This document shows positions 5,144-27,749 of a stretch of DNA of 64,000 bases, piece by piece; the first letter of the stretch is position 1, and the number at the start of each line of letters is the position of its first letter. The notes under the pieces are model-generated. The model did not search any database. It saw only the letters and a program-made list of their open reading frames with translations, and was not told the DNA's origin. Source of the DNA: a virus (Duplodnaviria > Heunggongvirae > Uroviricota > Caudoviricetes); the IMG/VR virus record IMGVR_UViG_3300033076_000726, positions 55,240 to 119,239 of that record; one strand, written 5' to 3'. Made by a program: the position numbers and the translations under genes.

Positions 5144-5207
5144 TTCTATTTCTCACATTTTTTGTTTATATTTGAGTAATAATAAACTTTTCTTAAACAA
5201 AAAACAA

Positions 5208-7101: not shown

Positions 7102-7563
7102 ATGAATAAGATAAATTTAACATTAGGAGAAATTAGACAATTAAACGATGAAATTAACGGACTCATCAATCAAGAAACAGGTAACGTTATTTTTGAAGGA
7201 TTTTTAAATCAAAAAATTTCAATTTTATTAAAATATGAATTAACCGATTTAAGTGAATTTCTCGAAAAGGAAAAAAATAAAACCGAAAAAATAAAAGATG
7301 AACTGATTTTAAAATACGGTGAGGAGGATGAAAAGGGAATAAAGTTAAACATGTGGTTAATTGATAAGGACGATGAGGGTAAAATATTATCCAAAACCAT
7401 AAATCCAAAATACGTTCAATTTGATGAAGAAATGGGTAAACTTATGTTGATGGAGAAAGAAATTGAATATCCTGATATCACTAAAGATGATTTAAAAAAC
7501 ATCGGAGAAACGAAAGACAATTATCAAGTGTTATTTAAACTAATAAAAAAAGGGACTAATTAA
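7102..7563 (+). CDS. hypothetical protein (Lys/Glu-rich)
   Basis: 153-aa ORF, last gene of the first rightward block, convergent with the minus-strand glycan island. Confidence 0.55.
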   Translation: MNKINLTLGEIRQLNDEINGLINQETGNVIFEGFLNQKISILLKYELTDLSEFLEKEKNKTEKIKDELILKYGEEDEKGIKLNMWLIDKDDEGKILSKTINPKYVQFDEEMGKLMLMEKEIEYPDITKDDLKNIGETKDNYQVLFKLIKKGTN

Positions 7564-8662
7564 GTCCCTTTCTTATTTCTATCATCATATTTCCTATTTG
7601 ATATTCACCCGGTTCATAATGAGGTATTGACAATCTTAAAGTGTATAAAAGATACACATCCTCATCTGTAAACGGTGCGGTTTCGTAAATCATCACATCT
7701 ACGGTATCTGTAAGGGTAAATTTGGACCTTAAATCATATCTGGTATTCTTCTGTTCATTCTCAATATAATCTTCAGGAATACGTCCTAAATTGATTTTAT
7801 CAAAGAATGGCTCAATCTCAAACAATCTATTGGAATTATTCGTAGATAATCCCATTGTGAATGTGTTATATTTAAATTCCTTATCTTCCCAATATCTTAA
7901 TTCATTAAATGACATAATAGGAATCCCCCACTTTCTTACGAAATTTCTATTGGATGATATTTCAATAATTTGTCTATTGTTCTTCATATCATCACTAAAT
8001 CTTGATGTCTGTGAAACAAAATGATAAGTGATAGCCGATTCACAAGTTTTTAATTCATATCCTTTTAGTTTTGCACGAATAAGAAAATCATCGTCTTCAC
8101 AAAAACAAGGTGCGAAACTAAATCCATCAAACATCCCAACATCCTCAAACATTTTCTTATATCCGCTCATAAAGAACACAGCACCGTCATATAGGGTATC
8201 TGAGTTTTTCCATTGTTGAACGTAATTGTTGAAATGATATGTGTTAAAATTTAAGAACGATGAACCTAAATCTAATAGAACTTTACCAGGTCTTTTGTGA
8301 CCGGCAAAAATTGGTGGTTCAATTGTTGTATAAGACAATAACATATTTGGTTGTAATAATCGTTCAATGGCTTCTAAAAAACCTTCACCGATAACCATAT
8401 CGTTATGTATCAAAACAAGCTTTTCAGTATCAACTAATTTAATACCCGCATTATATGTTTCAGAAAATGTTAATCTATCATCATCATGAATAAATGAAAG
8501 ATTATTGTCCTCCAAAGATTCTAACCATTCTTTTGTTCCATCTGTAGAACCACCACTACTTATAACTAATGGTTCGTTTGGATATAAATCACGAAGATAT
8601 CTATAACATTCTTTTGTTAGATTTAATTTATTATATACCGCTAATACAAATGTTATATTCAT
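7556..8662 (-). CDS. glycosyltransferase family 2
   Basis: N-terminal ITFVLAVYNKLNLTKECYRYL...SSGGSTDGT and LIHNDMVIGEGF fit a GT-A/GT2 fold. Confidence 0.75.
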   Translation of the reverse strand: MNITFVLAVYNKLNLTKECYRYLRDLYPNEPLVISSGGSTDGTKEWLESLEDNNLSFIHDDDRLTFSETYNAGIKLVDTEKLVLIHNDMVIGEGFLEAIERLLQPNMLLSYTTIEPPIFAGHKRPGKVLLDLGSSFLNFNTYHFNNYVQQWKNSDTLYDGAVFFMSGYKKMFEDVGMFDGFSFAPCFCEDDDFLIRAKLKGYELKTCESAITYHFVSQTSRFSDDMKNNRQIIEISSNRNFVRKWGIPIMSFNELRYWEDKEFKYNTFTMGLSTNNSNRLFEIEPFFDKINLGRIPEDYIENEQKNTRYDLRSKFTLTDTVDVMIYETAPFTDEDVYLLYTLRLSIPHYEPGEYQIGNMMIEIRKGLN

Positions 8663-9525
8663 TACTTATTATTCAAATATTCAACAATGTAATCTTCAAT
8701 GTTTTTAGTTGGTTCCCAATCTAATTGAAGTCTGGCTTCAGAACTATCACATAAAGTTATTAACGCCTCACCTGGTTTATCATCAGTAAAAACATATTCG
8801 TGTTTGAACATTTTAGCAATATCCTCGATTGAATAATTCTTACCTCTACCTAATTCGAATATATGTCCCCATTTATCATAAGATTTAATTCGAATAAGAC
8901 CATCCACAATATCTTCAATGTGTGTGAAATCCCTTCTCTTAGTTCCATCACCATAAATTGTTAATGGTTGACCGTCTTCAATTGCTTTTTCCCACTTACC
9001 GATTAAAGTACAATATCCACCCTCCTTCAAATGATGAGGGCCATATACATTATAGAAACGAGCAACACTTGCTTTCAAATTAAAATGTTGTTGATACATT
9101 TGAATAATCTCTTCACCAACATCTTTACTAAAAGTATATGGATTTTTAAATTTACCACTATGGTGTGAACTACTTCCCGCATATATTAGTGGTATGTTAT
9201 TTTGTACACAATAATCTGCAATGTATAAAGTACCATTTGCATTTGTTTGAAAATAACCAACTGGATTTTTAAAGGATGGTTGTATACGTGCAATTGCAGC
9301 TAAATGATATACCACATCAAAAGTTTGACCATCATCCAAATACGGGTTCCAATTTCTTTTTCTAAATGATATGTCTTCATTAACATATTTTGCACCCTCT
9401 ACGTGATTTGTTCTAAACCCCGTAAAATAGTTATCAACGGAAACAACATTGTGTCCTTCACTAACTAATCTTTTAATTAAATTGGTACCAACAAATCCAG
9501 CACCACCAGTCACTAATACGTTCAT
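8662..9525 (-). CDS. NAD-dependent sugar-nucleotide dehydratase/epimerase (SDR; UXS/4,6-dehydratase-like)
   Basis: VLVTGGAGFVGTNL Rossmann GxxGxxG, VDNYFTG, catalytic YTFSK (YxxxK). Confidence 0.8.
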   Translation of the reverse strand: MNVLVTGGAGFVGTNLIKRLVSEGHNVVSVDNYFTGFRTNHVEGAKYVNEDISFRKRNWNPYLDDGQTFDVVYHLAAIARIQPSFKNPVGYFQTNANGTLYIADYCVQNNIPLIYAGSSSHHSGKFKNPYTFSKDVGEEIIQMYQQHFNLKASVARFYNVYGPHHLKEGGYCTLIGKWEKAIEDGQPLTIYGDGTKRRDFTHIEDIVDGLIRIKSYDKWGHIFELGRGKNYSIEDIAKMFKHEYVFTDDKPGEALITLCDSSEARLQLDWEPTKNIEDYIVEYLNNK

Positions 9526-10646
9526 TATCTATTATTTACTATTTTAATTATTGATTCAATATCTTCATCCGTTAAACCTAAATGTAACGGTAAAGTTAAT
9601 TCATGTTTATCGTACCATTCTGCATTTACCAATCCACCCACTTTCTTAAATTCTCTAAATGGTTCATATTTGTCATTTCTTTTATAGTGCATACCACAGT
9701 AAACACCATTGTTTTTTAACAAATCATAAACCTCATCTCTGTCTTCAAAAAATAAAGGTAAAAAGTGTGACGAAGAAACTCTATCCGATTTATATTCAGG
9801 TAACAAAGCACCTTCGACACTATCTAAATAATATTGTGCAATTCTTCTACGACGCGTATTATTTTGATTGATTGTTTCTAAACCAATAATACCCATTGTA
9901 GATGCGATATCTGTTAAATGATACTTGTACCCAACTTCCTCAACTTCATAATCCCAATTGTATGTTGGTTTTTCAGTATTCAAATTACTTCTTGAAACAG
10001 TATCTTTATTGATACCTAACCATCTTAATTTATTTAAACGAGTATATAATTCTTCGTTGTTTGTTGAAATTGCACCACCATCCCCAACTGGTAAGTTTTT
10101 CACAGCTTGAAAACTCCAAACACAAATGTTATCAGTATCACCAATCATTTTACCATTGTACATTCCGCCAAATGCGTGTGCACAATCTTCAATAACAGGA
10201 ATACCATAACGATTGGCAATTTCATTGATACGAATCATATCACAACTATATCCACCGATATGAACAACGATAATCGCTTTAATTTCGTTATCTTCTTGTA
10301 ATGCTTGTTCAATAGAATCGGCACAAATATTACCGGTCATTTTTTCAACATCACAAAATACTGGAATATGACCTTCATACATAATTGCATGGTTTGTACT
10401 AACAAACGTATTTGATGTTGTAATGATTTTAGATTTAGGTGGTAAGTTTAAACACTTAACTGCTAAATGTAAACCAGCAGTTGCACTATTCAATGCAACA
10501 AAATACTTTGAACCGATATATTCGGATAATTTTGTTTCGAACTCCTTTGTTTTTGGACCCAATCCAATCCATCCTGAATTAAGAATTGGTCTTAATTCAT
10601 TTAGAATTCTTTCGGTGTCAATCATTGGTTTGAATACTTGTATCAT
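9525..10646 (-). CDS. DegT/DnrJ/EryC1/StrS-family PLP-dependent sugar aminotransferase
   Basis: ATAGLHLA, IIVVHIGGYSCDM, EDCAHAFGG, and SFQAVKNLPVGDGGAI (PLP-lysine region). Confidence 0.85.
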   Translation of the reverse strand: MIQVFKPMIDTERILNELRPILNSGWIGLGPKTKEFETKLSEYIGSKYFVALNSATAGLHLAVKCLNLPPKSKIITTSNTFVSTNHAIMYEGHIPVFCDVEKMTGNICADSIEQALQEDNEIKAIIVVHIGGYSCDMIRINEIANRYGIPVIEDCAHAFGGMYNGKMIGDTDNICVWSFQAVKNLPVGDGGAISTNNEELYTRLNKLRWLGINKDTVSRSNLNTEKPTYNWDYEVEEVGYKYHLTDIASTMGIIGLETINQNNTRRRRIAQYYLDSVEGALLPEYKSDRVSSSHFLPLFFEDRDEVYDLLKNNGVYCGMHYKRNDKYEPFREFKKVGGLVNAEWYDKHELTLPLHLGLTDEDIESIIKIVNNR

Positions 10647-11218
10647 AAATTTAAAAATTGTTGCGGTGTTATAAGATTTAATATTTCTTTTCTATTTTCA
10701 TCTAATAATTTAAAATCTAACACATCTGATTTTGGAAATAAGGTTTGTTTACCTTTACTAATAATACCAACACCGTGGTCAGTATCGACAACACACATAT
10801 TTAAATTTTCGTCTGTCATTCTGAATTTAACATATGCCTTCCATGTTGTCCCATTCCAAGTAGTTCCAAGAACATATTCTTCCACTTGATGTTCTTCTTT
10901 AATTGGACTACAGTCATGCATCACAATTGTTCCTCCATCACTTAAATGTTTTAATGAGTTGGTGATATCTTTTTCTACCTGATAATCAAGATGTAAACCA
11001 TCAATGAAGATAATATCATATTTTACGTTTTCATCTAATTGCTCAAAGAAATCGTCAGATGTAATTGGATAGTTACAACGACCCGCTGGGTCAACACCAT
11101 CCTTATGTTCAATATCAATTAGATTTAAATTGGATTCAGGGTCTCTAACTCCAATTTCTAAATACCGTTTATAATTATTTTTCTTGATTAAGTGATTGAT
11201 AATGTCTGTTCTTTTCAT
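10643..11218 (-). CDS. class I SAM-dependent methyltransferase (Methyltransf_24/TylF-like)
   Basis: YLEIGVRDPESN and DIIFIDGLHLDYQVEKD...LSDGGTIVMHDC. Confidence 0.7.
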   Translation of the reverse strand: MKRTDIINHLIKKNNYKRYLEIGVRDPESNLNLIDIEHKDGVDPAGRCNYPITSDDFFEQLDENVKYDIIFIDGLHLDYQVEKDITNSLKHLSDGGTIVMHDCSPIKEEHQVEEYVLGTTWNGTTWKAYVKFRMTDENLNMCVVDTDHGVGIISKGKQTLFPKSDVLDFKLLDENRKEILNLITPQQFLNL

Positions 11219-11729
11219 TCTTTTTTGCTTTTAAAATTATATCTGAATGTCCTCCATCCAAAGAATATGTTAGTTCGATAATTGTGAAATCTTCCTCAAA
11301 GAAATTTTGAATTTCTGTTAGACTCATTCGTACTTCATCTCCATAATTGTAGATGTTTGGTGATGAGGTATGTCCCTTCTCACATTTATCCGAACACATA
11401 GATAAAAATAAGAAACCTCCGTCACATAGTAAATCGGTAATTTGTTTTTTATAAAGATTTGGTTCAGGACAAAATTGAAATGAACTTATGGATGTCACAA
11501 AATTATATATCCCAATATGTTCTTCGGGGATAATGCCAGGTTCAATAACCACATCCACACCTTCTCCATCATATATGTCAAAACCAATTGCGTGTGATAT
11601 AATATTTTTAGTTGAACCGTTTATATTATACGCACCCACATCTGCAATTTTTGATGAATCGATACTAATCCTGTTTGATTTATACCAATCCTCAAGACGA
11701 TATTTTACATTATCATGCATATTGTTCAA
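11175..11729 (-). CDS. putative SAM-dependent methyltransferase
   Basis: IADVGAYNINGS (GxGxG-like), GVDVVIE, LLCDGGFLFLS; weaker match. Confidence 0.45.
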   Translation of the reverse strand: MNNMHDNVKYRLEDWYKSNRISIDSSKIADVGAYNINGSTKNIISHAIGFDIYDGEGVDVVIEPGIIPEEHIGIYNFVTSISSFQFCPEPNLYKKQITDLLCDGGFLFLSMCSDKCEKGHTSSPNIYNYGDEVRMSLTEIQNFFEEDFTIIELTYSLDGGHSDIILKAKKNEKNRHYQSLNQEK

Positions 11730-12624
11730 TAAGTTTTATCAGTTTTTCGGTTATAACTTTTGTACTTAAACTGTTCAAAATAAAAGGTTGAATATCTTTA
11801 AGATATCTTCTTCTGTTGTGGATGTTGTTTAATATATTAAGTGCGTTTTTTAATGATTGTGGGTCATTGGCAATCGCATAATCTAAATTGAATTCTTTTG
11901 CTAATTCTTCATAACTTCTTGATGAGTTAACAATACATGGTACACCACAAGCAATTGACGCAATCATTTTATTGTTACTCTTTACACCAGCATCTGAACC
12001 TAAATGAGATAATGCACATACATTTGATTTTCTTAAATCATCTACAAACGTATCAAGTCCCCATTGTGTTTTCGTAATCGGCGGTTGAACGTTTATGTTT
12101 CTTGCATCAGTTATTAAATTTAATTCAAATCTTGTTTCAATAATGTGAGGAACCATCCATTGTATCGACTGAGCATTTGGATAATTACCAAACCAAGCAA
12201 TTTTATTGGATACCTCAGGAGTTTCTAATATATCAACAACACCATAATCCAAACAATCCTCAATAACAATACATTCTTTACCAGTACCCAAAGAATCGAA
12301 ATGTTCTTTTCTACCCAAAGTATCTGTTGTAACAATATCGATATGTTCCATCATCTCTCTGAAATGTGGATTATTGTGTACAGGGTCATCGAAGTCAAAT
12401 ATTTTGAATCCTTCAAATGCTTTAACATATGTAAGTGTTTGGTTATCAATTCTTTTTTGAATGATTAGTATATCTGAATTGATATCAAAACCAATATTAC
12501 TTTCATACTTGTTAGAATGGTATCTGTTAATCGATTGATTTGGATAGAACAAACGTATTCTTGTTGATGCAAAGTTTTTTACATCATCATACATTGGTAT
12601 CCATGAAATTTTCTTAGTTGACAT
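11713..12624 (-). CDS. putative GT-B glycosyltransferase
   Basis: C-terminal SNNKMIASIACGVPCIVNSS resembles the GT4 donor-binding segment. Confidence 0.45.
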   Translation of the reverse strand: MSTKKISWIPMYDDVKNFASTRIRLFYPNQSINRYHSNKYESNIGFDINSDILIIQKRIDNQTLTYVKAFEGFKIFDFDDPVHNNPHFREMMEHIDIVTTDTLGRKEHFDSLGTGKECIVIEDCLDYGVVDILETPEVSNKIAWFGNYPNAQSIQWMVPHIIETRFELNLITDARNINVQPPITKTQWGLDTFVDDLRKSNVCALSHLGSDAGVKSNNKMIASIACGVPCIVNSSRSYEELAKEFNLDYAIANDPQSLKNALNILNNIHNRRRYLKDIQPFILNSLSTKVITEKLIKLIEQYA

Positions 12625-13210
12625 ATTCCCAATTAAATCTTAATCTTGGTGTTGACTCAACACCTTTTCTTTTTATTACTTCTAAATTATGTGTACTGTC
12701 TCTAACACCTTCACTTGAACTTTCCTTAGCGTATACTTTCGCTTTAATGTGTCTTAACTCATGTACTTCTAATAATCTTACACATTTATTATAGAAATGT
12801 ATATCATCATAACCATAGTTACCACAGAAGTCTTCATCATACCCACCAATCTTTTCAAAGTCATCTTTATGGATTACATAGATGTTTACACTATTAGTAT
12901 CTTCTCTACCTAAGTAATAAACACAACCACGTTTTAATTCTGTCTTTTCTAATTGTTCCATATTTTCTTTAGTCACTAAGTGGTCAATGTCTGCACATAA
13001 TATCCACCCATCGCTAATATGAAATCCTAAATTTCTTGCACCTGGTTGATTCCATTTAATGTCATCAGTTACCCTAACAACCTTAACACCATCCAATGGT
13101 CCTAATGGTTCCTTAGAACAATCATCAACAATAACAGTTTTCAATCCTTGTTCTAAAATACCTTGTATTCTTTCTCTTTGTCCGAAATATGTGTATAATA
13201 CTGTAATCAT
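12614..13210 (-). CDS. glycosyltransferase family 2-like (small)
   Basis: TVIVDDCSKEP and NQPGARNLGFHISDGWILCADIDHL (DxD-like). Confidence 0.55.
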   Translation of the reverse strand: MITVLYTYFGQRERIQGILEQGLKTVIVDDCSKEPLGPLDGVKVVRVTDDIKWNQPGARNLGFHISDGWILCADIDHLVTKENMEQLEKTELKRGCVYYLGREDTNSVNIYVIHKDDFEKIGGYDEDFCGNYGYDDIHFYNKCVRLLEVHELRHIKAKVYAKESSSEGVRDSTHNLEVIKRKGVESTPRLRFNWEYVN

Positions 13211-13213
13211 AAA

Positions 13214-13912
13214 TTATCTTAAATGTTTTCCTTGGTCATCAAAATACTCATTACCACCACTATCCCCTTTAACGGCATATAAGTTTGCATAACCTTTTAA
13301 TCTTTTTCTTTTTAATTTCTTATCTAATTTCCATATACAATATGGAAAACTAATTTGGTCTCTTGAACTAAATCTACATATTTGTTCCCACCACATTAAC
13401 TGTAATTGTTTAATTACATCTGTGGTTTTTACTATGAATGTCGAAAGTTCGAACAACCCAAATAATTCTGGCATCCCTTTAGATTTGTAGAACGCGAATT
13501 GATTATCAATATTTTGTTGATAGTCCAATCTCCAATGAACACATGCACCCATCTCTTGATATAAACAAGTTCTATCAGGATGTTTAAATAAAAAGATATC
13601 GGTATCGGCACCATACTCATCTATAATCAATTGAGGGTCTTTTTTTAATTGGTGGTTACCATCTTCCCAAATAATATATTCATATTGAGGGAACATTATT
13701 GACGATAAAATTTTATATGGTTTGGCATTTCTTCTATCAGTAAGTCCATCAATGGATGAAAATTCTAATACACTTCTTTGTTCCCAAACTTTAACTGTCT
13801 CGTCTTTCTTATCCACATATGCAATATAATCACAATTGTCAAAAACCTGTGGTGGGTCTAACAATTTATCTTTTCCTCCGGTGATTGCGGTTAATACTAA
13901 GAATTTTTTCAT
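13214..13912 (-). CDS. putative glycosyltransferase (TOD1/DUF616-like)
   Basis: N-terminal FLVLTAITGGKDKLLDP resembles the DUF616 'IYTAIFGxYDxL' start; tentative. Confidence 0.35.
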   Translation of the reverse strand: MKKFLVLTAITGGKDKLLDPPQVFDNCDYIAYVDKKDETVKVWEQRSVLEFSSIDGLTDRRNAKPYKILSSIMFPQYEYIIWEDGNHQLKKDPQLIIDEYGADTDIFLFKHPDRTCLYQEMGACVHWRLDYQQNIDNQFAFYKSKGMPELFGLFELSTFIVKTTDVIKQLQLMWWEQICRFSSRDQISFPYCIWKLDKKLKRKRLKGYANLYAVKGDSGGNEYFDDQGKHLR

Positions 13913-14619
13913 ATTTTTTCGTTTCTACAAAGTACAAGTAATTTATCATTATCCCATCCTGGGGAATATCTATTTTTATGTTCGGTCACAATAAAAGTCA
14001 TTGAATGGAAATACGACTCTAACGGTTCAAAATTCTTTGCGAAATCGTCTTCATTGGTACTTCTAAAAATATCCTCAACAATTAAATAACCACCTGGTTT
14101 TATGTAACGATATGCGTGATATGCGAATAATGTGTTATGAGGTAAATCATGTATCATATCATCAATTATCACATCAAATCCACCACCAGTCGATTGTAAA
14201 CACTCTTCAATTGACTCGGATTTATTAACATCCATGAAATGATATGTAGTGTTTTCTAAATTATCACTAATTGCTTTATTCATGTATGTTTGGTCATATT
14301 CAAATCCATGTAACTCGGCATATGGGAAGTATTCCCTCCAACACTTCATTGACATATTTTCGGCAATACCGCCTTCAGCAAATTTAATTGGTTTGTATCG
14401 TAATGACATAAATAACATATCATATACCGCCATGTATGGATGTCTATGTCCATCATGAACAACATATGGAGATTTATCTGTTGGATATTTTACACCCAAC
14501 TTACATAAATCAGTAATTGAATCTGATGAATCGATTATTAGTTTATTTATTATCATATTGTTCCGTAATATTTGTTTTGTTTTTCTTGTCTTTGTATTGT
14601 TTTGTGATGTTGAATACAA
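13909..14619 (-). CDS. class I SAM-dependent methyltransferase
   Basis: GGGFDVIIDDMIHD...YIKPGGYLIVEDIF (Methyltransf_24-like). Confidence 0.6.
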   Translation of the reverse strand: MYSTSQNNTKTRKTKQILRNNMIINKLIIDSSDSITDLCKLGVKYPTDKSPYVVHDGHRHPYMAVYDMLFMSLRYKPIKFAEGGIAENMSMKCWREYFPYAELHGFEYDQTYMNKAISDNLENTTYHFMDVNKSESIEECLQSTGGGFDVIIDDMIHDLPHNTLFAYHAYRYIKPGGYLIVEDIFRSTNEDDFAKNFEPLESYFHSMTFIVTEHKNRYSPGWDNDKLLVLCRNEKI

Positions 14620-15173
14620 TATTCTTCGTCATCAGGTAAGGAGGCAAATTTACTACCGCCTATAATCCTTTCATGAACTTTACCATACCATCTAAGATGT
14701 TTCTTATAAATTCTACCTTGTCTATCGGGAAAATTTATCCAACCCTTTTCATTTATGTTCCATCTCCAAGTGTCGATATGTTCTTGTGTTATCCCATCTA
14801 CTGTGTTAATACGGGGTACAAAGATTAAGTCTACGTTTGGGTTCATTTCAAGAATGTTATGTAAATTCTCAACCATATATTGACTAATCATCTCATCTGC
14901 GTCAATTTGATAGATATAATCACCAGTACAATAACCGTTTAATATGTTTTTAAAATCGGCAAAATTATCATTCCAATCAAAACATCTCCAAGTTTGAACA
15001 TTTGGTAGTTTATTATACGGTAATAGAAAATTTAATACGTCAGGGTCTCCATTTGTGTTATCATATAGAATCACTATTTCGTCCTGAGGTCTCTTGTAAT
15101 CCAATAAAAACGGGACTAATCTCCTTATTTCCGTCAATTCGTTGCAAATTGTTATTGCGTAACTTATCTTCAT
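14553..15173 (-). CDS. glycosyltransferase family 2
   Basis: MKISYAITICNELTEIRRL...EIVILYDNTNGD, then QIDADE (DxD). Confidence 0.65.
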   Translation of the reverse strand: MKISYAITICNELTEIRRLVPFLLDYKRPQDEIVILYDNTNGDPDVLNFLLPYNKLPNVQTWRCFDWNDNFADFKNILNGYCTGDYIYQIDADEMISQYMVENLHNILEMNPNVDLIFVPRINTVDGITQEHIDTWRWNINEKGWINFPDRQGRIYKKHLRWYGKVHERIIGGSKFASLPDDEEYCIQHHKTIQRQEKQNKYYGTI

Positions 15174-15264
15174 ATTTTCGTTTATTTTCTTCTATCGTTA
15201 ATTCTTCACATCTCCAACACCACTCAGCGTCTTTAGAATCCCAACTGTGTCTTTCACATCTCAT
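15061..15264 (-). CDS. small Zn-ribbon-like protein (uncertain)
   Basis: Internal ATG gives MRCERHSW...AEWCWRCEE (C-x2-H...C-x2-C) with an ATGA overlap onto the upstream ORF stop; overlaps the GT2 start by ~110 nt. Confidence 0.3.
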   Translation of the reverse strand: MRCERHSWDSKDAEWCWRCEELTIEENKRKYEDKLRNNNLQRIDGNKEISPVFIGLQETSGRNSDSI

Positions 15265-15488
15265 GCTCTTTGTCCTCCTATGTCCATCCAACGATTAAAA
15301 TATTCTAAATTAGTATTTAAACGTTGTATTCTACCTTCAAATATTGATGGTACACCATCGTTTATTCTTCTGGTTAATTCATCAATAATATTATTATCAA
15401 TTTCTCTCGCAATTTGTTCGGATAACATATTCGTTAATTCCGTTTCAACATCAACAACAAAGCCACGAAAAAATTTAAAACTATTCAT
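15261..15488 (-). CDS. hypothetical protein, member of the 'SFKF(F/L)RG' N-terminal family
   Basis: MNSFKFFRGFVVDVETEL...; N-terminus similar to the next ORF. Confidence 0.5.
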   Translation of the reverse strand: MNSFKFFRGFVVDVETELTNMLSEQIAREIDNNIIDELTRRINDGVPSIFEGRIQRLNTNLEYFNRWMDIGGQRA

Positions 15489-15738
15489 TTATTCTTTCCC
15501 TCGCAAATATTTTAAATCTTCTACCATTATGTTCGAATGTTATGTTCCCACCGGTTGTTGGTTGTATTGTCATAGTTAATGTATCATGACCCGTACCAAA
15601 CACGTGAGGTTCATCGTCATCGAATTGAAAACAATATTCATTATTTGTGTGAGGTGTGTTTTGTCTTAAAGATAATACCTGCATTGGTTCCAATCTTAAA
15701 AATATATCTTCATCACCTCTTAAAAATTTAAAACTCAT
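15481..15738 (-). CDS. hypothetical protein, tandem paralog (FDDDEP motif)
   Basis: Internal Met MSFKFLRGDED creates an ATGA overlap with the upstream gene; FQFDDDEPHVFG and C-terminal GRRFKIFARER shared with 15735-15998. Confidence 0.5.
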   Translation of the reverse strand: MSFKFLRGDEDIFLRLEPMQVLSLRQNTPHTNNEYCFQFDDDEPHVFGTGHDTLTMTIQPTTGGNITFEHNGRRFKIFARERINE

Positions 15739-15998
15739 TTTTGTTTGGGTCTTGCCCACATTTTAAAAGTCTTACCATTTTCACTATTGGTAAAAGTTAT
15801 AAACGATTGGTTTGTGTTTTGTAATTTAATTACAACTTCATGATTGGTTGAATTATCGTCTGATTGTGCAAACAATTGAGGTTCATCATCGTCAAATTGA
15901 ATCATCCACTCACACGGAGTATAATATTCAATTTCAGGAACATTAAGGTCAAATTCAACCTCAGGAGTTTCAATTTTCTTTTTTCTTGACTTAGCCAT
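15735..15998 (-). CDS. hypothetical protein, tandem paralog (FDDDEP motif)
   Basis: IQFDDDEPQLFA and GKTFKMWARPK match the neighbour. Confidence 0.55.
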   Translation of the reverse strand: MAKSRKKKIETPEVEFDLNVPEIEYYTPCEWMIQFDDDEPQLFAQSDDNSTNHEVVIKLQNTNQSFITFTNSENGKTFKMWARPKQK

Positions 15999-16000
15999 CT

Positions 16001-17257
16001 CTACTTAATTTTATTTAATTTAGGTAAAACTAATTTAGTTTCTTGTGGAATAACCATAAACGGCAAGATTATTGATTTAAACTTATCTTTCATTTTTTCC
16101 ATTGAAAAATTATTAACATTCTCTTCTCTCAAAACTTCAGATTTTTTTATAAACATATCATAATCTTTCTTAACTAATTTTAATACCTCAACAACTTCAC
16201 CATAATTTGCAGTAAACCATTTGGAACCTTTTATTATAAATGAATCAATTGCACTATCGTGAACATCTGTCAATTTACCTCCAACCATAATTGCCTTATC
16301 CATAGGTAAAAAATCTTTATGTCCCGACCAGTTAGATGCAACTATTGGTTTACCCGTCATTGAAAACTCTAACAATGGTCTACCAAACCCTTCACCTTTT
16401 GTTATTGATACCATTGATTTAATTTTTGGGTGGTTATATAGGTCATTCATTTCACTATCTGATAATTCACCAAATAACAAATAAATGGAAGGTGGATTTG
16501 GTATATCACTAACTAATCCTTGAATTTTCTTTCTGAAAGATTCTCTTTCTTTTATTGAAAATCCTGCGGACGATGTTTTTAAAACTAATGCGGGTTTATC
16601 TTCACTATCCTTAAACGCACTTGCAAAACATTTAATCAACATACCCACATCTTTTCTGTCTTGTCCTAAATCACCTTTTAACCAATGACCAACAAAAAGA
16701 TACGCAAAATCTTCCAAAATATCTAATTTAAAGTCATCATTTTTAATGTTGTTATAAACATTAGTATTAACACCTTCAAACAATACTTCAATAGGTTTTT
16801 CGATTCTATGTTGTTTAACTAATTTTCCAGTATTCTTTTCATTTTCATTATAAACAGTTTGTAATAATACATCCTTAGAAAATGTTGATGTGGTGATTAT
16901 CATATCCATTCTATTACAACCATCAACCCAATCTTTTGGTGCAATTGTTGTTTCAATACCCGCAGTAATTCCTATGTTAAATTTACCAACTCTTTGAAAT
17001 TCATTTGGTACTGTGACTTGAATATAAAGTTCGGGTGTCTGATTTAAATTAACTGTTACAATGTTCGATTCAATCCATTTGTGAAATGTATTATCACTTT
17101 CCAATGCGGTCATTGGTGTGGTTCCCCACATACAACTATCAATTTTAATATCAAACAAATCCATCTCATACAATGCTTGTAATAAATCTCTTGAATGTGC
17201 ACCGTACCCACTTCTCGTTTTTACTGGTCCTCTAAATAATAATGTTGGTTTGTTCAT
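16001..17257 (-). CDS. GT-B glycosyltransferase (GT4-like)
   Basis: GEGFGRPLLEFSMTGKPIVASNWSG fits the GT4 E-x7-E segment. Confidence 0.75.
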   Translation of the reverse strand: MNKPTLLFRGPVKTRSGYGAHSRDLLQALYEMDLFDIKIDSCMWGTTPMTALESDNTFHKWIESNIVTVNLNQTPELYIQVTVPNEFQRVGKFNIGITAGIETTIAPKDWVDGCNRMDMIITTSTFSKDVLLQTVYNENEKNTGKLVKQHRIEKPIEVLFEGVNTNVYNNIKNDDFKLDILEDFAYLFVGHWLKGDLGQDRKDVGMLIKCFASAFKDSEDKPALVLKTSSAGFSIKERESFRKKIQGLVSDIPNPPSIYLLFGELSDSEMNDLYNHPKIKSMVSITKGEGFGRPLLEFSMTGKPIVASNWSGHKDFLPMDKAIMVGGKLTDVHDSAIDSFIIKGSKWFTANYGEVVEVLKLVKKDYDMFIKKSEVLREENVNNFSMEKMKDKFKSIILPFMVIPQETKLVLPKLNKIK

Positions 17258-18636
17258 ACTAACTTATATAAATTAAATTTTTCTCTTGGTTTATAATTCA
17301 TCAATGCGGTTTCAATTCCCTCAACCATTTTATCACACATCACTTTTGATGAGAAGTTCTCAATTGCAAATTCACGACCCTTTAATCCTCTTTCTTTTCT
17401 ACCCTCTTTACCCCATGAATAAACTTCACTAATTGCTTGTGCAACATCATAATCGTTTACTCTATCATCAAAAATATAAGGTGTTGGTACCGAACCATTT
17501 ATGTTATTTGCAACTGACCATACTGGTTTAACCCATTCACCATGTTTTGTTGACCCGTGGTCTTTTTTAATATGAAGTGAACCAAATGTAATGTAATTGT
17601 CTGCGGTGTAATTAAAACCACATTGGTCTTGTAAACCTCCTGTTACATTTACAATGATTGGTGTTCCGGCCATTAGACTTTCGACTGTGGTTAAACCGAA
17701 ACCTTCATTGTTTGCAATGTTTATTGTGCAATCAGATGCGTTATATAATTCATTTAATTTATCCTGTTCTAATTTAATGTTGGTAAATTTAACATCGTAG
17801 TCAGGACATAAAGTATCTTTAACTGCATTTAAATCTGTACCATTATCGTCAACTGGTGCGGTGTGCATTAACAATAGACATTTATCAGATTCTTCCTTCG
17901 GTAACATGTCACAAAACAATTTATATGAATATATCACATCACTTGGTTGTTTTCTTCTTATGTTTCTATTGTTGTAAAATAAAATGAATTCATATTTCTT
18001 TTTTGAAAACAAAAACTTATCGAATTCATCTGAAATTTTATCAATCGGTTTGAACACCTCAGGATTTATTCCGTGTGGAACATAACTAATCTGCCAATCT
18101 TCTAAAGGTTTATATGTTGGTTCATCAGTCATTTTACCAACTCTATGAACAATACCATATGTTTGTTTAGATATACAACCAATCCAATCACAACTTTCAT
18201 AGAAATCTCTATTATATTTTGGGTCTGGTAAGTTATCCCATATGTGATAATAAAGTATTGGACATACTTGTCTTATTTCATGTTCATTATCATATAACCA
18301 TTGCCAATAATGTGGGTCGGTGAAATGTAAAATAGCATCTGGTTTTTCTTCTAATAATAATTTTCTAAGAATACCAATATCACCATAACCATTATATGGA
18401 ATTATTTTTAAATTAGCATCCTCAACACCCGTTCTCTTTCTAACATCGTCATTTATATCAACAACTTTTCCAAATTCAGGATGTTTAATTGCCCCACCTA
18501 ATTGAACCCAGTCGTATTTGTCAATTGTACCCAATACGATTTCTTTAGACATGGTGGCAATACCTGACGTCATTCGCAAATCGTCAGATAATAATAATAT
18601 TTTTTTCTTCTTCATTAAATCAATACTTTGAACCAC
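17254..18636 (-). CDS. GT-B glycosyltransferase (GT4-like)
   Basis: NNEGFGLTTVESLMAGTPIIVNVTGG. Confidence 0.75.
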   Translation of the reverse strand: MVQSIDLMKKKKILLLSDDLRMTSGIATMSKEIVLGTIDKYDWVQLGGAIKHPEFGKVVDINDDVRKRTGVEDANLKIIPYNGYGDIGILRKLLLEEKPDAILHFTDPHYWQWLYDNEHEIRQVCPILYYHIWDNLPDPKYNRDFYESCDWIGCISKQTYGIVHRVGKMTDEPTYKPLEDWQISYVPHGINPEVFKPIDKISDEFDKFLFSKKKYEFILFYNNRNIRRKQPSDVIYSYKLFCDMLPKEESDKCLLLMHTAPVDDNGTDLNAVKDTLCPDYDVKFTNIKLEQDKLNELYNASDCTINIANNEGFGLTTVESLMAGTPIIVNVTGGLQDQCGFNYTADNYITFGSLHIKKDHGSTKHGEWVKPVWSVANNINGSVPTPYIFDDRVNDYDVAQAISEVYSWGKEGRKERGLKGREFAIENFSSKVMCDKMVEGIETALMNYKPREKFNLYKLV

Positions 18637-18817: not shown

Positions 18818-19133
18818 TATATATGTTTATACATTTATATATACTAAGTATACAAAAAATATCGGACAAAATCTATATTTCTGCCCGATATTTTTTTATT
18901 ATTGGTTAGTATTATCTGTTGTAGTTTGCTCCTGAACAGGTGCTGGTTGTGTAGGTACCGGTGTTTGTTGTTCGGTAATTTTAATTGTTAAAGGTACTGG
19001 TTCTGTTGCTGTATCCTGATTTCTTTTTTTACATCCGCATCCCATAATGTTTCTTTTTTTATAAATATTTTGGTTTATTAGTTTTTATTTCTTATACTTT
19101 GATTAAATGTAAACAAAAAGAAAATAAAAATCA
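18818..19133. promoter_or_regulatory. divergent intergenic region between the leftward glycan block and the rightward block
   Basis: 316 bp AT-rich spacer where transcription diverges; no consensus located. Confidence 0.3.
18899..19045 (-). CDS. small Pro/Thr/Gln-rich peptide (below track cutoff)
   Basis: Own translation: MGCGCKKRNQDTATEPVPLTIKITEQQTPVPTQPAPVQEQTTTDNTNQ (48 aa) in otherwise non-coding DNA. Confidence 0.3.
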   Translation of the reverse strand: MGCGCKKRNQDTATEPVPLTIKITEQQTPVPTQPAPVQEQTTTDNTNQ

Positions 19134-27719: not shown

Positions 27720-27749
27720 CTACACAATATCAATAAATCCATATATCTT

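Follow-up and report, generated by a model that had tools for sequence, protein, structure and literature searches.

A phage-encoded glycan assembly operon with a conserved glycosyltransferase frame and an exchangeable tailoring cassette

Introduction

What does a large phage make with an operon of glycosyltransferases (GTs), methyltransferases and sugar-modifying enzymes, and on which acceptor is the product built? The question is raised by a 64-kb stretch of viral DNA (hereafter, the window), for which an earlier note made from the sequence alone described a contiguous minus-strand run of glycan genes at 7556-18636. The note named virion glycosylation and host-surface remodelling as possible roles, and giant viruses and serotype-converting prophages as possible analogies. 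Here we report the gene content, conservation and distribution of this locus. The analysis bears out a phage-encoded locus for multi-enzyme glycan assembly and tailoring, and the two roles named at the outset are still the two leading explanations.

Results

A single operon of soluble proteins

The claimed minus-strand run holds, and one further small gene at its 5' end extends it to 18817. It is a single transcription unit of a large freshwater phage that is uncultured and probably infects a member of the Flavobacteriales. The tightly packed operon (18817 to 7556, ~11.3 kb) encodes 16 soluble proteins: seven GTs or GT-like proteins, three candidate methyltransferases, a DegT aminotransferase, a GalE-like SDR and four small proteins (Table 1). 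Its genes overlap or abut, with the sole exception of one 88-nt gap.

Most family assignments of the earlier note stand; the four small genes (three at 15261-15998 and the 65-aa gene at 18620-18817) had been overlooked. In place of two Methyltransf_24-type and two other methyltransferases, the island holds three candidates, one of them of the Methyltransf_24 family; a second Methyltransf_24 gene lies outside, at 4481-5143 on the plus strand. Two starts were revised, that of GT4a (ORF previously 17254-18636) to the ATG at 18615, and that of the 215-aa methyltransferase candidate (ORF previously 13909-14619) to the start called on identical contigs.

Table 1. Features of the operon and its borders, in order of transcription
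Feature	Position	Strand	Basis or characteristics
Terminator-like hairpin	18853..18893	-	ATATCGGGC...GTCCGATAT + T-run, read from sequence
AT-rich near-palindrome	18829..18844	-	GTATATATAAATGTAT, 11 nt upstream of first gene
s65, small conserved protein, 65 aa	18620..18817	-	ribbon-helix-helix-like sequence pattern
GT4a, GT-B/GT4 glycosyltransferase, 453 aa	17254..18615	-	Pfam Glycos_transf_1
GT4b, second GT4 glycosyltransferase	16001..17257	-	weak Pfam Glycos_transf_1 match
s87, 'MARGRKK' subtype of s87 family	15735..15998	-	cluster 0, small conserved protein
s92/85, tandem paralogue of s87	15481..15738	-	N-terminal M-x-FKF(F/L)-x-G motif
s75, mini-protein homologous to part of gp23-type major capsid protein	15261..15488	-	Pfam Gp23
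GT2, 206 aa, cassette 5' border	14553..15173	-	Pfam Glycos_transf_2
Class-I SAM methyltransferase candidate, 215 aa	13909..14556	-	weak Pfam Methyltransf_31, E 1.8e-5, below cut-off
TOD1/MUCI70 (ex-DUF616) GT-like protein	13214..13912	-	Pfam TOD1_MUCI70, E 7.8e-22
Small GT-A/GT2-like glycosyltransferase	12614..13210	-	Pfam Glyco_tranf_2_2 + Glyco_transf_7C, just above cut-offs
GT-B fold glycosyltransferase, 303 aa	11713..12624	-	AlphaFold pLDDT 94.9 + Foldseek
SAM-dependent methyltransferase	11175..11720 (ORF to 11729)	-	PHROG 32762, E 8.7e-6; no Pfam match
Methyltransf_24 methyltransferase	10643..11218	-	Pfam, E 1.1e-9
DegT/PseC/ArnB-type PLP sugar aminotransferase	9525..10646	-	Pfam, E 2e-91
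Short extended-SDR NDP-sugar enzyme, 287 aa	8662..9525	-	Pfam Epimerase, E 1e-42
Terminal GT2, 368 aa, cassette 3' border	7556..8662	-	Pfam Glycos_transf_2
Bidirectional intrinsic-terminator-like hairpin	7546..7574	.	12-bp stem + T-run, both strands

The operon is bordered by candidate regulatory structures. The terminator-like hairpin would close the 48-aa ORF upstream and insulate the operon, and a hairpin with a T-run 5' of the s65 homologue recurs in about 30 related loci. The near-palindrome is a putative operon-specific promoter or operator: relatives keep its position and sequence type (TATATA-N5-6-TATATA), and of the 4 matches of a loose pattern in the window (1.8 expected by chance), no other was seen directly preceding a gene start. 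At the 3' end, the bidirectional hairpin separates the operon from a convergent 153-aa gene.

Membrane components were searched for across relatives. The 19-residue hydropathy windows of all island proteins stay below 1.3, and the 442 operon proteins taken from 60 loci include no multi-pass membrane protein. On 72 cassette representatives, 52 Pfam families were matched, and the 25 commonest contain no flippase, polymerase or priming transferase.

A conserved frame around a hypervariable cassette

The conserved frame consists of s65, GT4a, GT4b, the 206-aa GT2 and the terminal GT2, together with two or three small proteins. GT4a has more than 8000 homologues, the best 120 of which are all at least 77% identical; its top-scoring structure in the PDB is the chlorovirus GT B736L. 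A search of IMG/VR with GT4b returned 232 related stretches, on viral contigs of up to 335 kb. The 206-aa GT2 occurs in 80 of 85 loci (median identity 72%), the terminal GT2 in 57 (78%) and s65 in 70 (75%). The frame extends to cultured phages, where GT4b is 43% identical to the gene at the same position in Flavobacterium phage immuto and Microcystis phage Mel-JY01, and the 206-aa GT2 is 49% and 36% identical to theirs, respectively. The terminal GT2 is 30% identical to immuto gp169, likewise terminal, and s65 is 39% identical to gp182, at the equivalent position. The best PDB profile match of s65 is a CopG ribbon-helix-helix protein, not significant at E 0.37, and its sequence pattern suggests a putative regulator.

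Between the two GT2 genes lies a hypervariable stretch. The 60 loci comprise 76 gene clusters in 36 architectures, and only three of the clusters lying between GT4b and the terminal GT2 are common. Operons measure 5.1 to 12.5 kb, and their middle parts 0.8 to 7.4 kb. Methyltransferases, including rhamnosyl O-methyltransferase/CmcI types, dominate the pan-cassette, in which GT2s, NDP-sugar enzymes and aminotransferases are also abundant, and the cassettes of relatives hold no membrane or export proteins. Cassettes of loci with a GT4b nucleotide identity of at least 98% have a Jaccard similarity of 0.94, which falls to 0.09 where that identity is under 80%. In three loci sharing the cassette of this window, four genes have 85-93% amino-acid identity and three others 55-72%, whereas the core GTs are only 73-77% identical, which points to horizontal exchange. 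The middle of the operon is thus exchanged between relatives, in the manner of a bacterial O-antigen locus.

Enzymes of the cassette in this window

The GT-B call at 11713-12624 was borne out by the AlphaFold model and Foldseek despite the lack of a Pfam match in the protein itself (Glyco_trans_1_4 was found on one homologue). Foldseek matched it to BshA, PimA, Gtf3/GtfC and ManT (E about 1e-9, TM about 0.7), as well as SenB and a tetrahydrobiopterin glucosyltransferase, and its top PDB profile match is Gtf3 (E 0.002). Gtf3/GtfC work in the glycosylation of serine-rich-repeat adhesins. In strain L001, which is 99.2% identical, a 223-bp replacement disrupts the TOD1/MUCI70 gene.

The aminotransferase retains the catalytic PLP lysine, in 'SFQAVKNLPVGDGG'; its NCBIfam scores for PseC (298 bits) and ArnB (241 bits) are both below the cut-offs, and its best PDB matches are TlmJ and ArnB. 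The SDR, with best PDB matches Pal and UXS1, has a GalE-like active site (GSSS...YTFSK) without the T-D-E (or S-T-S-E) acid/base residues of 4,6-dehydratases and decarboxylases. The dehydratase step, and with it the complete amino-deoxy-sugar toolkit previously claimed, therefore lacks support. The SDR is 65% identical to the immuto 'epimerase' gp170 versus 26-27% to the SDRs of close relatives.

These enzymes could also yield some cytoplasmic product that is not a virion glycoprotein, such as a soluble polymethylated oligo- or polysaccharide of the kind known from mycobacteria (methylmannose polysaccharides), a small molecule bearing a glycan, or proteins of the host or non-structural proteins of the phage that are glycosylated for cell takeover or protection. 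Consistent with this are the solubility of every enzyme, the abundance of methyltransferases in the pan-cassette, the position of the operon among non-structural genes, and the Foldseek matches to ManT, a methylmannose-polysaccharide mannosyltransferase, and to the small-molecule GTs BshA, SenB and tetrahydrobiopterin glucosyltransferase. However, fast cassette turnover with horizontal exchange is the signature of an externally recognised structure, no hydrolase or carrier gene of the sort usual in such pathways was recognised, and no phage precedent is known. We consider a product of this kind rather improbable.

Small proteins and a capsid fragment

Upstream of the cassette lie three small genes. 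The s87 cluster 0 is found in 55 of 60 loci, with the motif E(F/W)CFQFxxxEP...FK(L/I)FAR and a Ka/Ks of 0.23; its structure model, of modest confidence, matches no known fold. Its paralogue s92/85 has 53 homologues, all of 78-103 aa; the AlphaFold model (pLDDT 68) gave no match in a fold search. The s75 family, present in 45 of 60 loci and under purifying selection (Ka/Ks 0.36), corresponds to the E-loop strand and spine helix of the capsid protein, with a profile match to residues 297-356 of the immuto major capsid protein (50 bits, E 2.6e-17). The window copy retains only the helix part, and locus L011 has an unmarked Pfam Gp23 match as well. Since the gene is missing from immuto, Mel-JY01 and the minimal operon of locus L178, s75 is not essential to the core system.

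An ancient phage locus

The phage context inferred earlier is supported by the IMG/VR relatives, by syntenic operons in cultured phages and by the rarity of the locus in cellular genomes. Could it instead be a bacterial polysaccharide locus, mis-binned or recently transferred into a phage? Its enzyme families are typical of such loci, and two homologous loci occur in MAGs labelled Flavobacteriales. These two are, however, the only matches in 185,579 bacterial and archaeal species genomes, and one of the two lies on a 248-kb contig whose phage flanks are the same. The 232 IMG/VR stretches and the operons of cultured phages likewise argue against a bacterial origin. The suggestion of a recently acquired island also fails, as GC, GC3, codon usage and tetranucleotide profile are indistinguishable from those of the rest of the window, and every relative examined carries the locus with the same phage-type flanking genes. 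Distribution and composition together rule out a bacterial locus or recent capture, to which we assign a practically negligible probability.

Among 50,697 phage records, strong GT4a homologues were found only in immuto, Mel-JY01, LR756508 and Rhodothermus phage RM378 (46, 51, 34 and 28% identity, respectively). The carriers, which form one gp23-type capsid clade, are exactly the four closest capsid-protein relatives (100/54/51/39% identity), after which identity drops to 28%. Such co-occurrence is expected for any core gene, so that the capsid is not singled out as the target. The four enzymes at the ends of the operon belong to the ancient core of this phage clade, in distinction to the exchanged middle. 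In immuto, Mel-JY01 and RM378, the operon or GT4 pair lies among replication and nucleotide-metabolism genes, and structural genes do not adjoin the operon in this window, unlike in mycobacteriophages, whose GT genes adjoin them; this position weighs against a virion acceptor.

Neighbouring genes and DNA glycosylation

SGNH/GDSL esterases (23507-24136 and 57274-57864) were confirmed as neighbours; Pfam, PHROGs and a motif scan found neither the fibre-like nor the sulfotransferase gene proposed with them. Just past the operon 3' end are an outer-membrane-barrel-like protein (signal peptide, C-terminal ...GWRF) and an 8-TM DUF401 protein.

The genomic surroundings bear on another alternative, in which the GTs would glycosylate a hydroxylated or hydroxymethylated pyrimidine, or some other modified base, as protection against restriction, as in the T-even phages, RB69/DLP3 and the MT/5mYOX/GT clusters. 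A ThyA homologue (24133-25179) lies 5.5 kb from the operon, in the same arrangement in relatives, two C5-cytosine methylases and one N6/N4 methylase are encoded in the window, and the DNA-metabolism context of the GT4 pair in cultured phages fits as well. Yet a set of seven GTs plus enzymes for amino sugars and methylation goes far beyond the known DNA glycans, which are mono- to trisaccharides. A TET/JBP dioxygenase was not detected in the window, the sole 2OG oxygenase found being of the 2OG-FeII_Oxy_5 type. A thymidylate-synthase homologue with GT-B enzymes nearby is a known signature (10.1101/2023.12.21.572611), but this ThyA passes the NCBIfam thymidylate-synthase equivalog cut-offs, and in alignment it has an intact C-terminus and all TS-type residues (Leu143, Cys146, Asp169, Asn177; diagnostic residues from PMC13326640). 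Immuto has the homologous operon, and HPLC-UV-MS of its virion DNA showed only dA, dC, dT and formyl-preQ1 replacing dG, without a glycosylated nucleoside (PMC10516641). DNA glycosylation by the homologous immuto operon is largely refuted; by this operon it is unlikely, and we give it a very small probability.

Discussion

Two explanations lead. Under host-envelope remodelling, the phage GTs would act at the inner membrane face on host lipid-linked intermediates (O-antigen, capsule or general O-glycan of Bacteroidota), use the host priming transferase, flippase and ligase, and alter the host surface, for example blocking superinfection or changing grazing; the cassette would vary because host glycans vary. 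Peripheral, soluble GTs are the norm in bacterial O-antigen pathways, so the lack of transmembrane segments is compatible with action on undecaprenyl-linked intermediates. Conserved flanks around a variable centre are typical of surface-polysaccharide loci, and the esterases and the barrel-like and DUF401 proteins of the window would fit. Envelope remodelling is also the standard reading of such clusters in large aquatic myoviruses, namely the GT/'LPS' clusters in hypervariable regions of pelagimyophages (PMC7029224) and those of P-SSM2, S-SCSM1 and S-SCSM2R (PMC12801897). Against it, the 60 loci contained no priming phosphoglycosyltransferase, flippase, polymerase, ABC exporter or Gtr-type protein, and only about 15 of 85 loci have the DUF401 and barrel genes along with the operon. 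The ORFs scanned yielded neither an integrase nor a lysogeny marker, which, with the lack of membrane Gtr-type proteins, also speaks against the analogy with serotype-converting prophages. The core GTs are kept in phages whose hosts span three phyla (Bacteroidota, Cyanobacteria, Rhodothermus) with unrelated envelope glycans; hosts this diverse make a host-specific envelope acceptor less likely than a phage-borne one. We regard envelope remodelling as a serious but unlikely explanation.

We tentatively favour, as nearly an even chance, cytoplasmic glycosylation of a phage protein, probably of the virion, giving a strain-specific sugar coat. We infer the acceptor, sugars and timing as follows. 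During infection, cytoplasmic assembly of a conserved core oligosaccharide by the conserved GTs would take place directly on an acceptor encoded by the phage. The most plausible acceptor is a virion protein, for instance the capsid protein or a decoration protein. Host NDP-sugars would serve as donors; the SDR may interconvert a donor and DegT aminate a 4-keto sugar, probably host-made. Cassette enzymes would then add residues and methylate them, yielding a strain-specific glycan. The similarity of the GT-B enzyme to Gtf3/GtfC recalls adhesin glycosylation. A possible capsid link comes from the s75 family, which matches the capsid protein and is under purifying selection. The closest functional parallel is the giant viruses, as the earlier note had proposed, with soluble GTs, methyltransferases and a conserved core under strain-specific decoration. 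GT4a has its best match in B736L, and the dominance of methyltransferases in the pan-cassette resembles the situation in chlorovirus glycans (PMC9614988, PMC7826918).

The picture is now one of a conserved frame combined with a hypervariable tailoring cassette, with GT4a tied to one capsid clade. Since relatives differ in the cassette, glycosylation of this kind would mean that the lineage has glycan 'serotypes'.

Organization of the operon

The operon is a continuous series of minus-strand ORFs running from 18817 to 7556, most of which abut or overlap by 1-8 nt, with a single 88-nt gap upstream of the 206-aa GT2 gene. Family assignments were made using Pfam, NCBIfam, and PHROGs. The gene list of the earlier note was close to this content but missed four small genes. 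It also counted four methyltransferases, two of them of the Methyltransf_24 type; methyltransferases are indeed present, but the operon contains three candidates with a single Methyltransf_24 among them, and the second such gene lies outside the operon on the opposite strand. The 303-aa protein matched no family in Pfam, NCBIfam, or PHROGs. Its AlphaFold model (pLDDT 94.9, alignment of 23 homologues) resembles the GT-B enzymes BshA, PimA, Gtf3/GtfC, and ManT (E ~1e-9, TM ~0.7), and because of this match the GT-B call previously made for the gene is right. The terminal GT2 has no sequence match in PDB, no defence-system relative was found by PADLOC, and no transmembrane segments were found in any protein of the island. 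A marginal Pfam 'GT4-conflict' match on GT4a, which overlaps Glycos_transf_1, was discarded.

Coordinates of the operon genes, regulatory elements, and other genes of the window. Identities are medians over related loci, with the number of loci in parentheses.
Feature	Coordinates	Strand	Length (aa)	Remark	Median identity (loci)
Near-palindrome	18829-18844			AT-rich, GTATATATAAATGTAT, 11 nt 5' of the s65 ATG	
s65	18620-18817	-	65	putative ribbon-helix-helix-like protein	75% (70)
GT4a	17254-18615	-	453	from ATG; start per gene callers on identical contigs	75% (71)
GT4b	16001-17257	-		GT4	76% (85)
s87	15735-15998	-	87		
s92/85	15481-15738/59	-	85-92	tandem paralogue of s87	
s75	15261-15488	-	75	capsid-fragment homologue	
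Gap	15174-15260			88 nt	
GT2	14553-15173	-	206		72% (80)
Methyltransferase candidate	13909-14556	-			
TOD1/MUCI70 (formerly DUF616) protein	13214-13912	-			
Small GT2-like protein	12614-13210	-			
GT-B protein	11713-12624	-	303	AlphaFold model and fold match	
SAM-methyltransferase	11175-11720	-			
Methyltransf_24 protein	10643-11218	-			
DegT aminotransferase	9525-10646	-			
SDR	8662-9525	-	287		
Terminal GT2	7556-8662	-	368		78% (57)
Terminator	7546-7574			bidirectional, 12-bp stem	
Envelope-protein gene pair	5133-7087	+		overlapping genes	
Second Methyltransf_24 gene	4481-5143	+			
Possible second tailoring set	1811-5143	+			
N6/N4 DNA methyltransferase	19134-19817	+		divergent from operon	
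SGNH-like block protein	19798-20544	+		'GCSFTMG' block only	
GDSL/SGNH esterase	23507-24136	+			
ThyA	24133-25179	+	348		
PcfJ-like protein pair	25860-29150	+	619, 466		
C5-cytosine DNA methyltransferase	29258-30235	+			
C5-cytosine DNA methyltransferase	33070-33780	+			
B12-binding radical-SAM protein, metallophosphoesterase	40646-43443	+	715 (first)		
Second sugar-activation mini-locus	52654-54236	+			
Sugar-1-phosphate nucleotidylyltransferase	53505-54236	+	243		
GDSL/SGNH esterase	57274-57864	+			

A conserved glycosyltransferase frame and an exchangeable cassette

The operon was compared by tblastn with 85 related loci; both ends are present in 60 of them, and the ORFs of these 60 were clustered. 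The small protein s65 and the four glycosyltransferases GT4a, GT4b, the 206-aa GT2, and the terminal GT2 form a conserved frame, and two small-protein families are also common (55/60 and 45/60 loci). By contrast, all content lying between the 206-aa GT2 and the terminal GT2 genes, hereafter the cassette, is variable among loci. The length of the operon ranges from 5.1 to 12.5 kb and that of its middle part from 0.8 to 7.4 kb (5.9 kb in the window), and the 60 loci contain 76 gene clusters arranged in 36 architectures. A Pfam census of 72 cluster representatives identified Methyltransf_24 (9), GT2 (7), NDP-sugar epimerase/dehydratase (5), rhamnosyl O-methyltransferase/CmcI (3), DegT (2), and hexapeptide acyltransferase (2) families, as well as other SAM-methyltransferase families, short-chain dehydrogenases, PhyH dioxygenases, and FAD oxidoreductases. 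Priming phosphoglycosyltransferases, flippases/polymerases, ABC exporters, and chain-length regulators were not found among the 25 commonest Pfam families of the census, and none of the 442 operon proteins from the 60 loci is a multi-pass membrane protein.

The similarity of cassettes falls as the frame diverges: the mean Jaccard index is 0.94 at a GT4b nucleotide identity of at least 98%, 0.65 at 90-98%, where a quarter of the pairs are fully disjoint, and 0.09 below 80%. Three loci, L031, L033, and L085, share the cassette type of the window, with four genes 85-93% identical (DegT 93%) and three others 55-72% identical, whereas their core glycosyltransferases are 73-77% identical to those of the window. 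This pattern indicates that the cassette has been transferred between diverged genomes. Variation at a finer scale is seen in L001 (ERZ4208449), a locus 99.2% identical to the window, in which a 223-bp segment (13601-13823) of the TOD1/MUCI70-like gene is replaced by ~100 bp, truncating the gene to 112 aa; here a cassette gene decays or varies within a population.

Ancestry of the frame in one capsid clade

In a collection of 50,697 phage records, strong GT4a homologues were found in four lineages only: Microcystis phage Mel-JY01 (GT4a ~48-51% identical to that of the window; capsid protein 54% identical to that of immuto), Flavobacterium phage immuto (~46-47%; 100%), LR756508 (34%; 51%), and Rhodothermus phage RM378 (28%; 39%). 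When the immuto capsid protein was used as the query, the same four lineages came out on top, followed at 28% by ~2,000 T4-like phages. In immuto and Mel-JY01, adjacent GT4a and GT4b orthologues are followed by a ~206-aa GT2 in the same order and on a single strand (tblastn identities of 43% for GT4b and 49% for GT2 in immuto, 43% and 36% in Mel-JY01). The two phages share with the window the order small protein, GT4a, GT4b, (small protein), GT2, tailoring genes, SDR, and terminal GT2, and the SDR of the window is 65% identical to that of immuto. Their cassettes differ, however: that of immuto includes two genes for aminotransferases and one for an acetyltransferase, whereas the window has three methyltransferases and three extra glycosyltransferases. 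RM378 has GT4a alone, beside a 425-aa gene that is uncharacterised, and a GT2 far from it. No published function was found for the operons of immuto, Mel-JY01, or RM378, and the literature search returned no paper on Mel-JY01.

The glycosyltransferase frame is ancestral to one gp23-type capsid clade, the hosts of which (Flavobacterium, Microcystis, and Rhodothermus) belong to different phyla. The operon is flanked by replication and lysis genes in immuto and RM378. The 64-kb window contains no capsid gene, and a scan for the capsid gene of the lineage, with the immuto capsid protein as seed, returned immuto-like contigs only. An indirect sign that the genome may carry a capsid protein of this clade is the s75 gene fragment in the operon, which is similar to the immuto capsid protein at 50 bits.

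A capsid-fragment gene and lineage-specific small proteins

The s75 protein has a weak Pfam Gp23 match, and the copy from a relative has a confident one. It is encoded by a conserved gene of 60-95 aa (e.g., L011:12866-13123 and L050:11471-11725) with the family motif FKFFxG...RxLRAxWxPE...HGIDAEAELTRxMSEEIAREIDxxII..LTRRINGG and, after it, a variable tail, the last residues of which are usually -RA. In a two-sequence search, the s75 family profile matched residues 297-356 of the immuto major capsid protein (50 bits, E 2.6e-17), which we take to be the returning E-loop strand and the spine helix of the HK97 fold (gp23); the s75 of the window lacks the strand part.

The two tandem paralogues at 15481-15998, s87 and s92/85, belong to a family of 53 homologues of 78-103 aa known solely from the phage lineage of the window. 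Most members of this family share with s75 the N-terminal M-x-FKFF-x-G, a motif seen nowhere else in the compared loci, and FKFFxG is all that the two have in common. The s87 profile did not match the capsid protein. The N-terminal 26 residues of the s87 family are predicted to be disordered; for its structural model (pLDDT 68), Foldseek returned nothing below E = 1. An N-x-S/T sequon was considered in this family and set aside, being not conserved across members. The Ka/Ks values of the s75 (0.36) and s87 (0.23) families, compared with 0.10 for the 206-aa GT2, show that the small ORFs are real genes. Unlike in the window, the s75 and s87 genes are absent in immuto, Mel-JY01, and the minimal operon of the related locus L178, and they are lineage-specific additions outside the ancestral system.

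Operon boundaries and a putative regulator

Upstream of s65, a terminator-like hairpin closes a 48-aa ORF, and the arrangement of hairpin, T-run, palindrome, and ATG is common to ~30 related loci. A loose form of the palindrome pattern has four matches in the 64-kb window, of which the operon one alone was seen directly 5' of a gene start. The palindrome is not a general late-promoter motif in the window, because it was seen upstream of s65 only; the exact T4-type late promoter TATAAATA is absent upstream of the operon. The s65 protein has the β-α-α pattern of ribbon-helix-helix proteins and is also present in immuto. The top match of its profile in PDB, a CopG ribbon-helix-helix protein, was not significant (E = 0.37), and s65 is putatively ribbon-helix-helix-like by its sequence pattern. 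Together, s65, the hairpin, and the palindrome (18620-18893) look like an autoregulated operator/promoter unit, in which autoregulation would act through the palindrome. At its other end, the operon is separated from a convergent 153-aa gene by the bidirectional terminator.

Phage origin, composition, and host

The window has ~31% GC throughout. The earlier note had raised the possibility of a recently acquired island, which the comparison of composition contradicts: core and cassette genes match the rest of the window in GC content (0.311 and 0.312 vs. 0.322 in the 65 other window genes), in RSCU distance to the rest (0.345 and 0.360; null 0.355 ± 0.059), and in tetranucleotide correlation (r = 0.98 and 0.97; null 0.93-0.99). 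The exact DegT protein occurs on 14 metagenome contigs, some of them 100% identical over 20.6 kb. GT4a has >8000 homologues, the best 120 of which are at least 77% identical, and GT4b has 232 IMG/VR relatives, on viral contigs of up to 335 kb. Of 185,579 bacterial and archaeal species genomes, only two have a GT4a match. Both are Flavobacteriales MAGs (L178 and L179), and one of the matches lies on a contig of 248 kb that carries a minimal operon together with the same phage flanks. The neighbours kept in relatives include DUF192, the N6/N4 methylase, ThyA, the PcfJ-like proteins, and the convergent 153-aa gene. That the stretch is a non-phage artefact is hardly credible. Neither the island nor a second 10-kb stretch matched any of the 50,697 phage records by megablast, and the lineage is without a close cultured relative.

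A Shine-Dalgarno-like motif precedes 4% of window genes, less than the background of 6.7%, and there is an A-rich stretch at positions -10 to -14. Scarcity of Shine-Dalgarno sites and A-rich upstream sequences are a pattern of Bacteroidota; the lack of Shine-Dalgarno sites and the MAG labels agree, and both point to a Flavobacteriales host.

Neighbouring and distant genes

The earlier note described SGNH-esterase, sulfotransferase, and fibre-like genes beside the operon. Two GDSL/SGNH esterases are supported by Pfam, and a third protein carries an SGNH-like block only; the GDSL/SGNH proteins could be glycan O-acetyl esterases. Searches with Pfam and PHROGs and a scan for the PAPS-loop motif detected no sulfotransferase or fibre-like neighbours. 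The genes at one end of the window, encoding a 2OG-Fe(II) oxygenase, a radical-SAM protein with a weak viperin-like N-terminus, a 341-aa PHROG 1458/36869 protein, and a Methyltransf_24 protein, may form a second small-molecule or glycan tailoring set adjoining the operon. The following envelope-protein gene pair, 88-91% conserved in L011, encodes an 8-TM DUF401 permease-like protein and a 319-aa protein that resembles an outer-membrane beta-barrel, having a signal peptide and ending in ...GWRF. This pair was rejected as an export route, as it lies beside the operon in only ~15 of 85 loci. Farther away, the two large adjacent PcfJ-like proteins show 37-44% identity in relatives, and the B12-binding radical-SAM methyltransferase-type protein, with a metallophosphoesterase encoded next to it on the downstream side, is unusual phage cargo.

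Sugar-nucleotide enzymes

The DegT aminotransferase is intact, and its Schiff-base lysine lies within 'SFQAVKNLPVGDGG'. Among solved structures it is closest to TlmJ and ArnB; the NCBIfam models for PseC and ArnB also match, with scores under their cut-offs. The best solved relatives of the SDR are Pal and the UDP-glucuronate decarboxylase UXS1. When aligned to these, it reads G-S-S-S where dehydratases and decarboxylases have T-D-E or S-T-S-E, followed by a shortened loop and YTFSK. The YxxxK motif is thus present, but the Thr-Asp-Glu triad expected of an NDP-hexose 4,6-dehydratase, the activity previously proposed for this gene, is not. The G-S-S-S pattern is of the GalE type, E. coli GalE reading 'SSSATVYG'. 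Minimal operons lacking any aminotransferase (architecture '1-7') also have an SDR of this type, and on both grounds we read it as a probable NDP-sugar epimerase-like enzyme. The toolkit for an amino-deoxy sugar, formerly called complete, is accordingly less so at the sugar-nucleotide step, as the SDR lacks the dehydratase catalytic residues. The 4-keto substrate of DegT would be supplied by the host or be the product of an as yet unrecognised activity. A sugar-1-phosphate nucleotidylyltransferase gene lies 35 kb from the operon and overlaps by 1 nt an upstream unannotated 283-aa gene, forming a separate second sugar-activation mini-locus.

Phage DNA as an improbable target

The proximity of GT-B enzymes to ThyA homologues is a recognised sign of DNA glycosylation, and a ThyA homologue is located 5.5 kb from the operon. 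The window also encodes three DNA methylases, with the C5-methylases 10-15 kb off, and the phage DNA is probably methylated. Nevertheless, we consider DNA a very improbable target of the operon. The ThyA passes the NCBIfam equivalog cut-offs for thymidylate synthase and has Leu143, Cys146, Asp169, Asn177, and an intact C-terminus; these residues distinguish true synthases from hydroxymethylases and 5-hydroxy-dCMP synthases (L143D/E, N177D, D169N) (PMC13326640). No TET/JBP enzyme was found within the window. In immuto, which has a homologous operon and serves as a proxy for the lineage, HPLC-UV-MS of virion DNA revealed only dA, dC, dT, and formyl-preQ1 (fdPreQ1), and no glycosylated nucleosides (PMC10516641). 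The ThyA itself carries two insertions and is shorter than those of relatives (364-378 aa) and immuto (423 aa); an exact-protein look-up found nothing on record.

Comparison with known systems

The moraphages are freshwater jumbo phages with 200-307-kb genomes and predicted Bacteroidota hosts, the core genome of which includes four putative glycosyltransferase orthogroups, and a Rhodothermus phage is among their capsid-protein relatives (PMC12619734). The four orthogroups recall the four conserved glycosyltransferases of the operon, and the predicted hosts fit the lack of Shine-Dalgarno sites and the Flavobacteriales MAG matches. Judging by their published description, the moraphages may be the same lineage as the phage of the window or a sister to it; that description treats the glycosyltransferases as putative and gives no account of an operon, a variable cassette, or a capsid-fragment gene (PMC12619734).

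In P-SSM2, S-SCSM1, S-SCSM2R, and pelagimyophages, glycosyltransferases of putative function are clustered with NDP-sugar epimerases, with content variable between relatives (PMC12801897, PMC7029224). These aquatic myovirus LPS clusters resemble the operon in their many glycosyltransferases and epimerases and their variable content. Those clusters, however, lie in the hypervariable tail-fibre region and are read as modifying the host O-chain, whereas the fixed four-glycosyltransferase frame is an ancestral trait of another capsid clade. GT4a has no match in these phages, and the core is without sequence relationship to their clusters.

In giant viruses, the glycans (N-glycans on the chlorovirus capsid, fibril glycans in Megavirinae) have a conserved core, the decoration of which differs by strain or clade, and these viruses encode soluble glycosyltransferases, sugar-nucleotide enzymes including DegT-type aminotransferases, and methyltransferases (PMC7826918, PMC10117803, PMC9614988). 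The operon is similar in encoding soluble glycosyltransferases with sugar-nucleotide and methylation enzymes, free of membrane-linked machinery, and the best PDB match of GT4a is the chlorovirus glycosyltransferase B736L, at a marginal 29 bits. Chloroviruses and Megavirinae are, however, eukaryotic viruses with another capsid fold, and their glycan and acceptor are chemically established, whereas those of the operon are wholly inferred. In mycobacteriophages, as reported for Freeman et al. 2023 (cited in PMC12619734 and PMC12801897), phage glycosyltransferases modify phage structural proteins in the cytoplasm with no export machinery, as is envisaged here; these systems comprise 2-4 glycosyltransferase genes beside structural genes in phages of actinobacterial hosts, with no sugar-tailoring cassette. 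The operon is flanked instead by methylase, DUF192, ThyA, membrane-protein, and auxiliary genes; L012 and L013 have a large gene ~2 kb beyond the operon end, with Peptidase_S74 in the L012 copy.

Bacterial O-antigen and capsule loci likewise have conserved flanks and a recombining centre of glycosyltransferases, NDP-sugar enzymes, aminotransferases, acetyltransferases, and methyltransferases. Unlike them, the operon is phage-borne and lacks Wzx/Wzy, an ABC transporter, a priming transferase, and a chain-length regulator. The resemblance to serotype-converting prophages suggested in the earlier note did not hold. Such modules (gtrABC, oac) encode an integral-membrane GtrA flippase, the bactoprenol glycosyltransferase GtrB, and a type-specific Gtr or acetyltransferase, and lie beside int/att in temperate phages. 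The operon encodes no membrane proteins, and no integrase was seen among the scanned or precomputed ORFs, which cover the window except for parts of 21-34 kb and 53-64 kb.

Possible targets of the glycosylation

The dynamics of the cassette point to an externally recognised structure. Remodelling of the host envelope is the customary reading of glycosyltransferase clusters in aquatic myoviruses (PMC12801897, PMC7029224), and it retains some probability here because bacterial O-antigen glycosyltransferases are likewise soluble. We nonetheless regard it as rather unlikely, as no priming, flipping, polymerising, or exporting function was found in any of the 60 loci, and the frame is conserved across phages whose hosts have unrelated envelopes. 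An acceptor carried by the phage explains both observations. The capsid-derived mini-gene, the Gtf3-like GT-B, and the match to a chlorovirus glycosyltransferase lean toward such an acceptor, although none of them is proof. Weighing this evidence against the rivals, we therefore favour, tentatively and with somewhat less than even confidence, that the operon glycosylates a phage protein, probably of the virion, in the cytoplasm. Another cytoplasmic product is decidedly unlikely.

A more specific and unlikely form of the virion interpretation is that phages of this freshwater clade make their own serotype-like variable glycan coat, with the mini-protein as coupler and a role in adsorption; the operon would then be what an O-antigen locus is in bacteria. 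The four ancestral glycosyltransferases would lay down a glycan core, which the horizontally exchanged cassette would diversify. The mini-protein derived from the capsid E-loop and spine helix would act as an adaptor, primer, or decoy, coupling the enzymes to the capsid lattice, and adsorption to Bacteroidota hosts could depend on the variable glycan or be tuned by it, for instance via glycan-binding outer-membrane systems.

Significance

Large phages with multi-glycosyltransferase clusters are already known, as is glycosylation encoded by viruses. In the searched literature, we found no description of a fixed four-glycosyltransferase frame ancestral to one capsid clade, of an O-antigen-like exchangeable tailoring cassette across dozens of relatives, or of a capsid-fragment gene within a glycosyltransferase operon. 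The locus is also a compact source of soluble glycosyltransferases, sugar methyltransferases, and aminotransferases that need no membrane machinery. Since immuto is cultured and has a homologous operon, the target of the glycosylation is directly testable. Even if the host surface is the target, the data show that in a large clade of phages the 'LPS genes' make up a structured locus of ancestral origin and are not accessory genes scattered about. If the virion is the target, virus-encoded, host-independent glycosylation, so far chemically established in giant viruses and mycobacteriophages only, would extend to an abundant aquatic phage clade, and phage glycans would diversify via cassette exchange, like bacterial surface antigens, with a bearing on host recognition by phages, escape from recognition, and the upkeep of population microdiversity.
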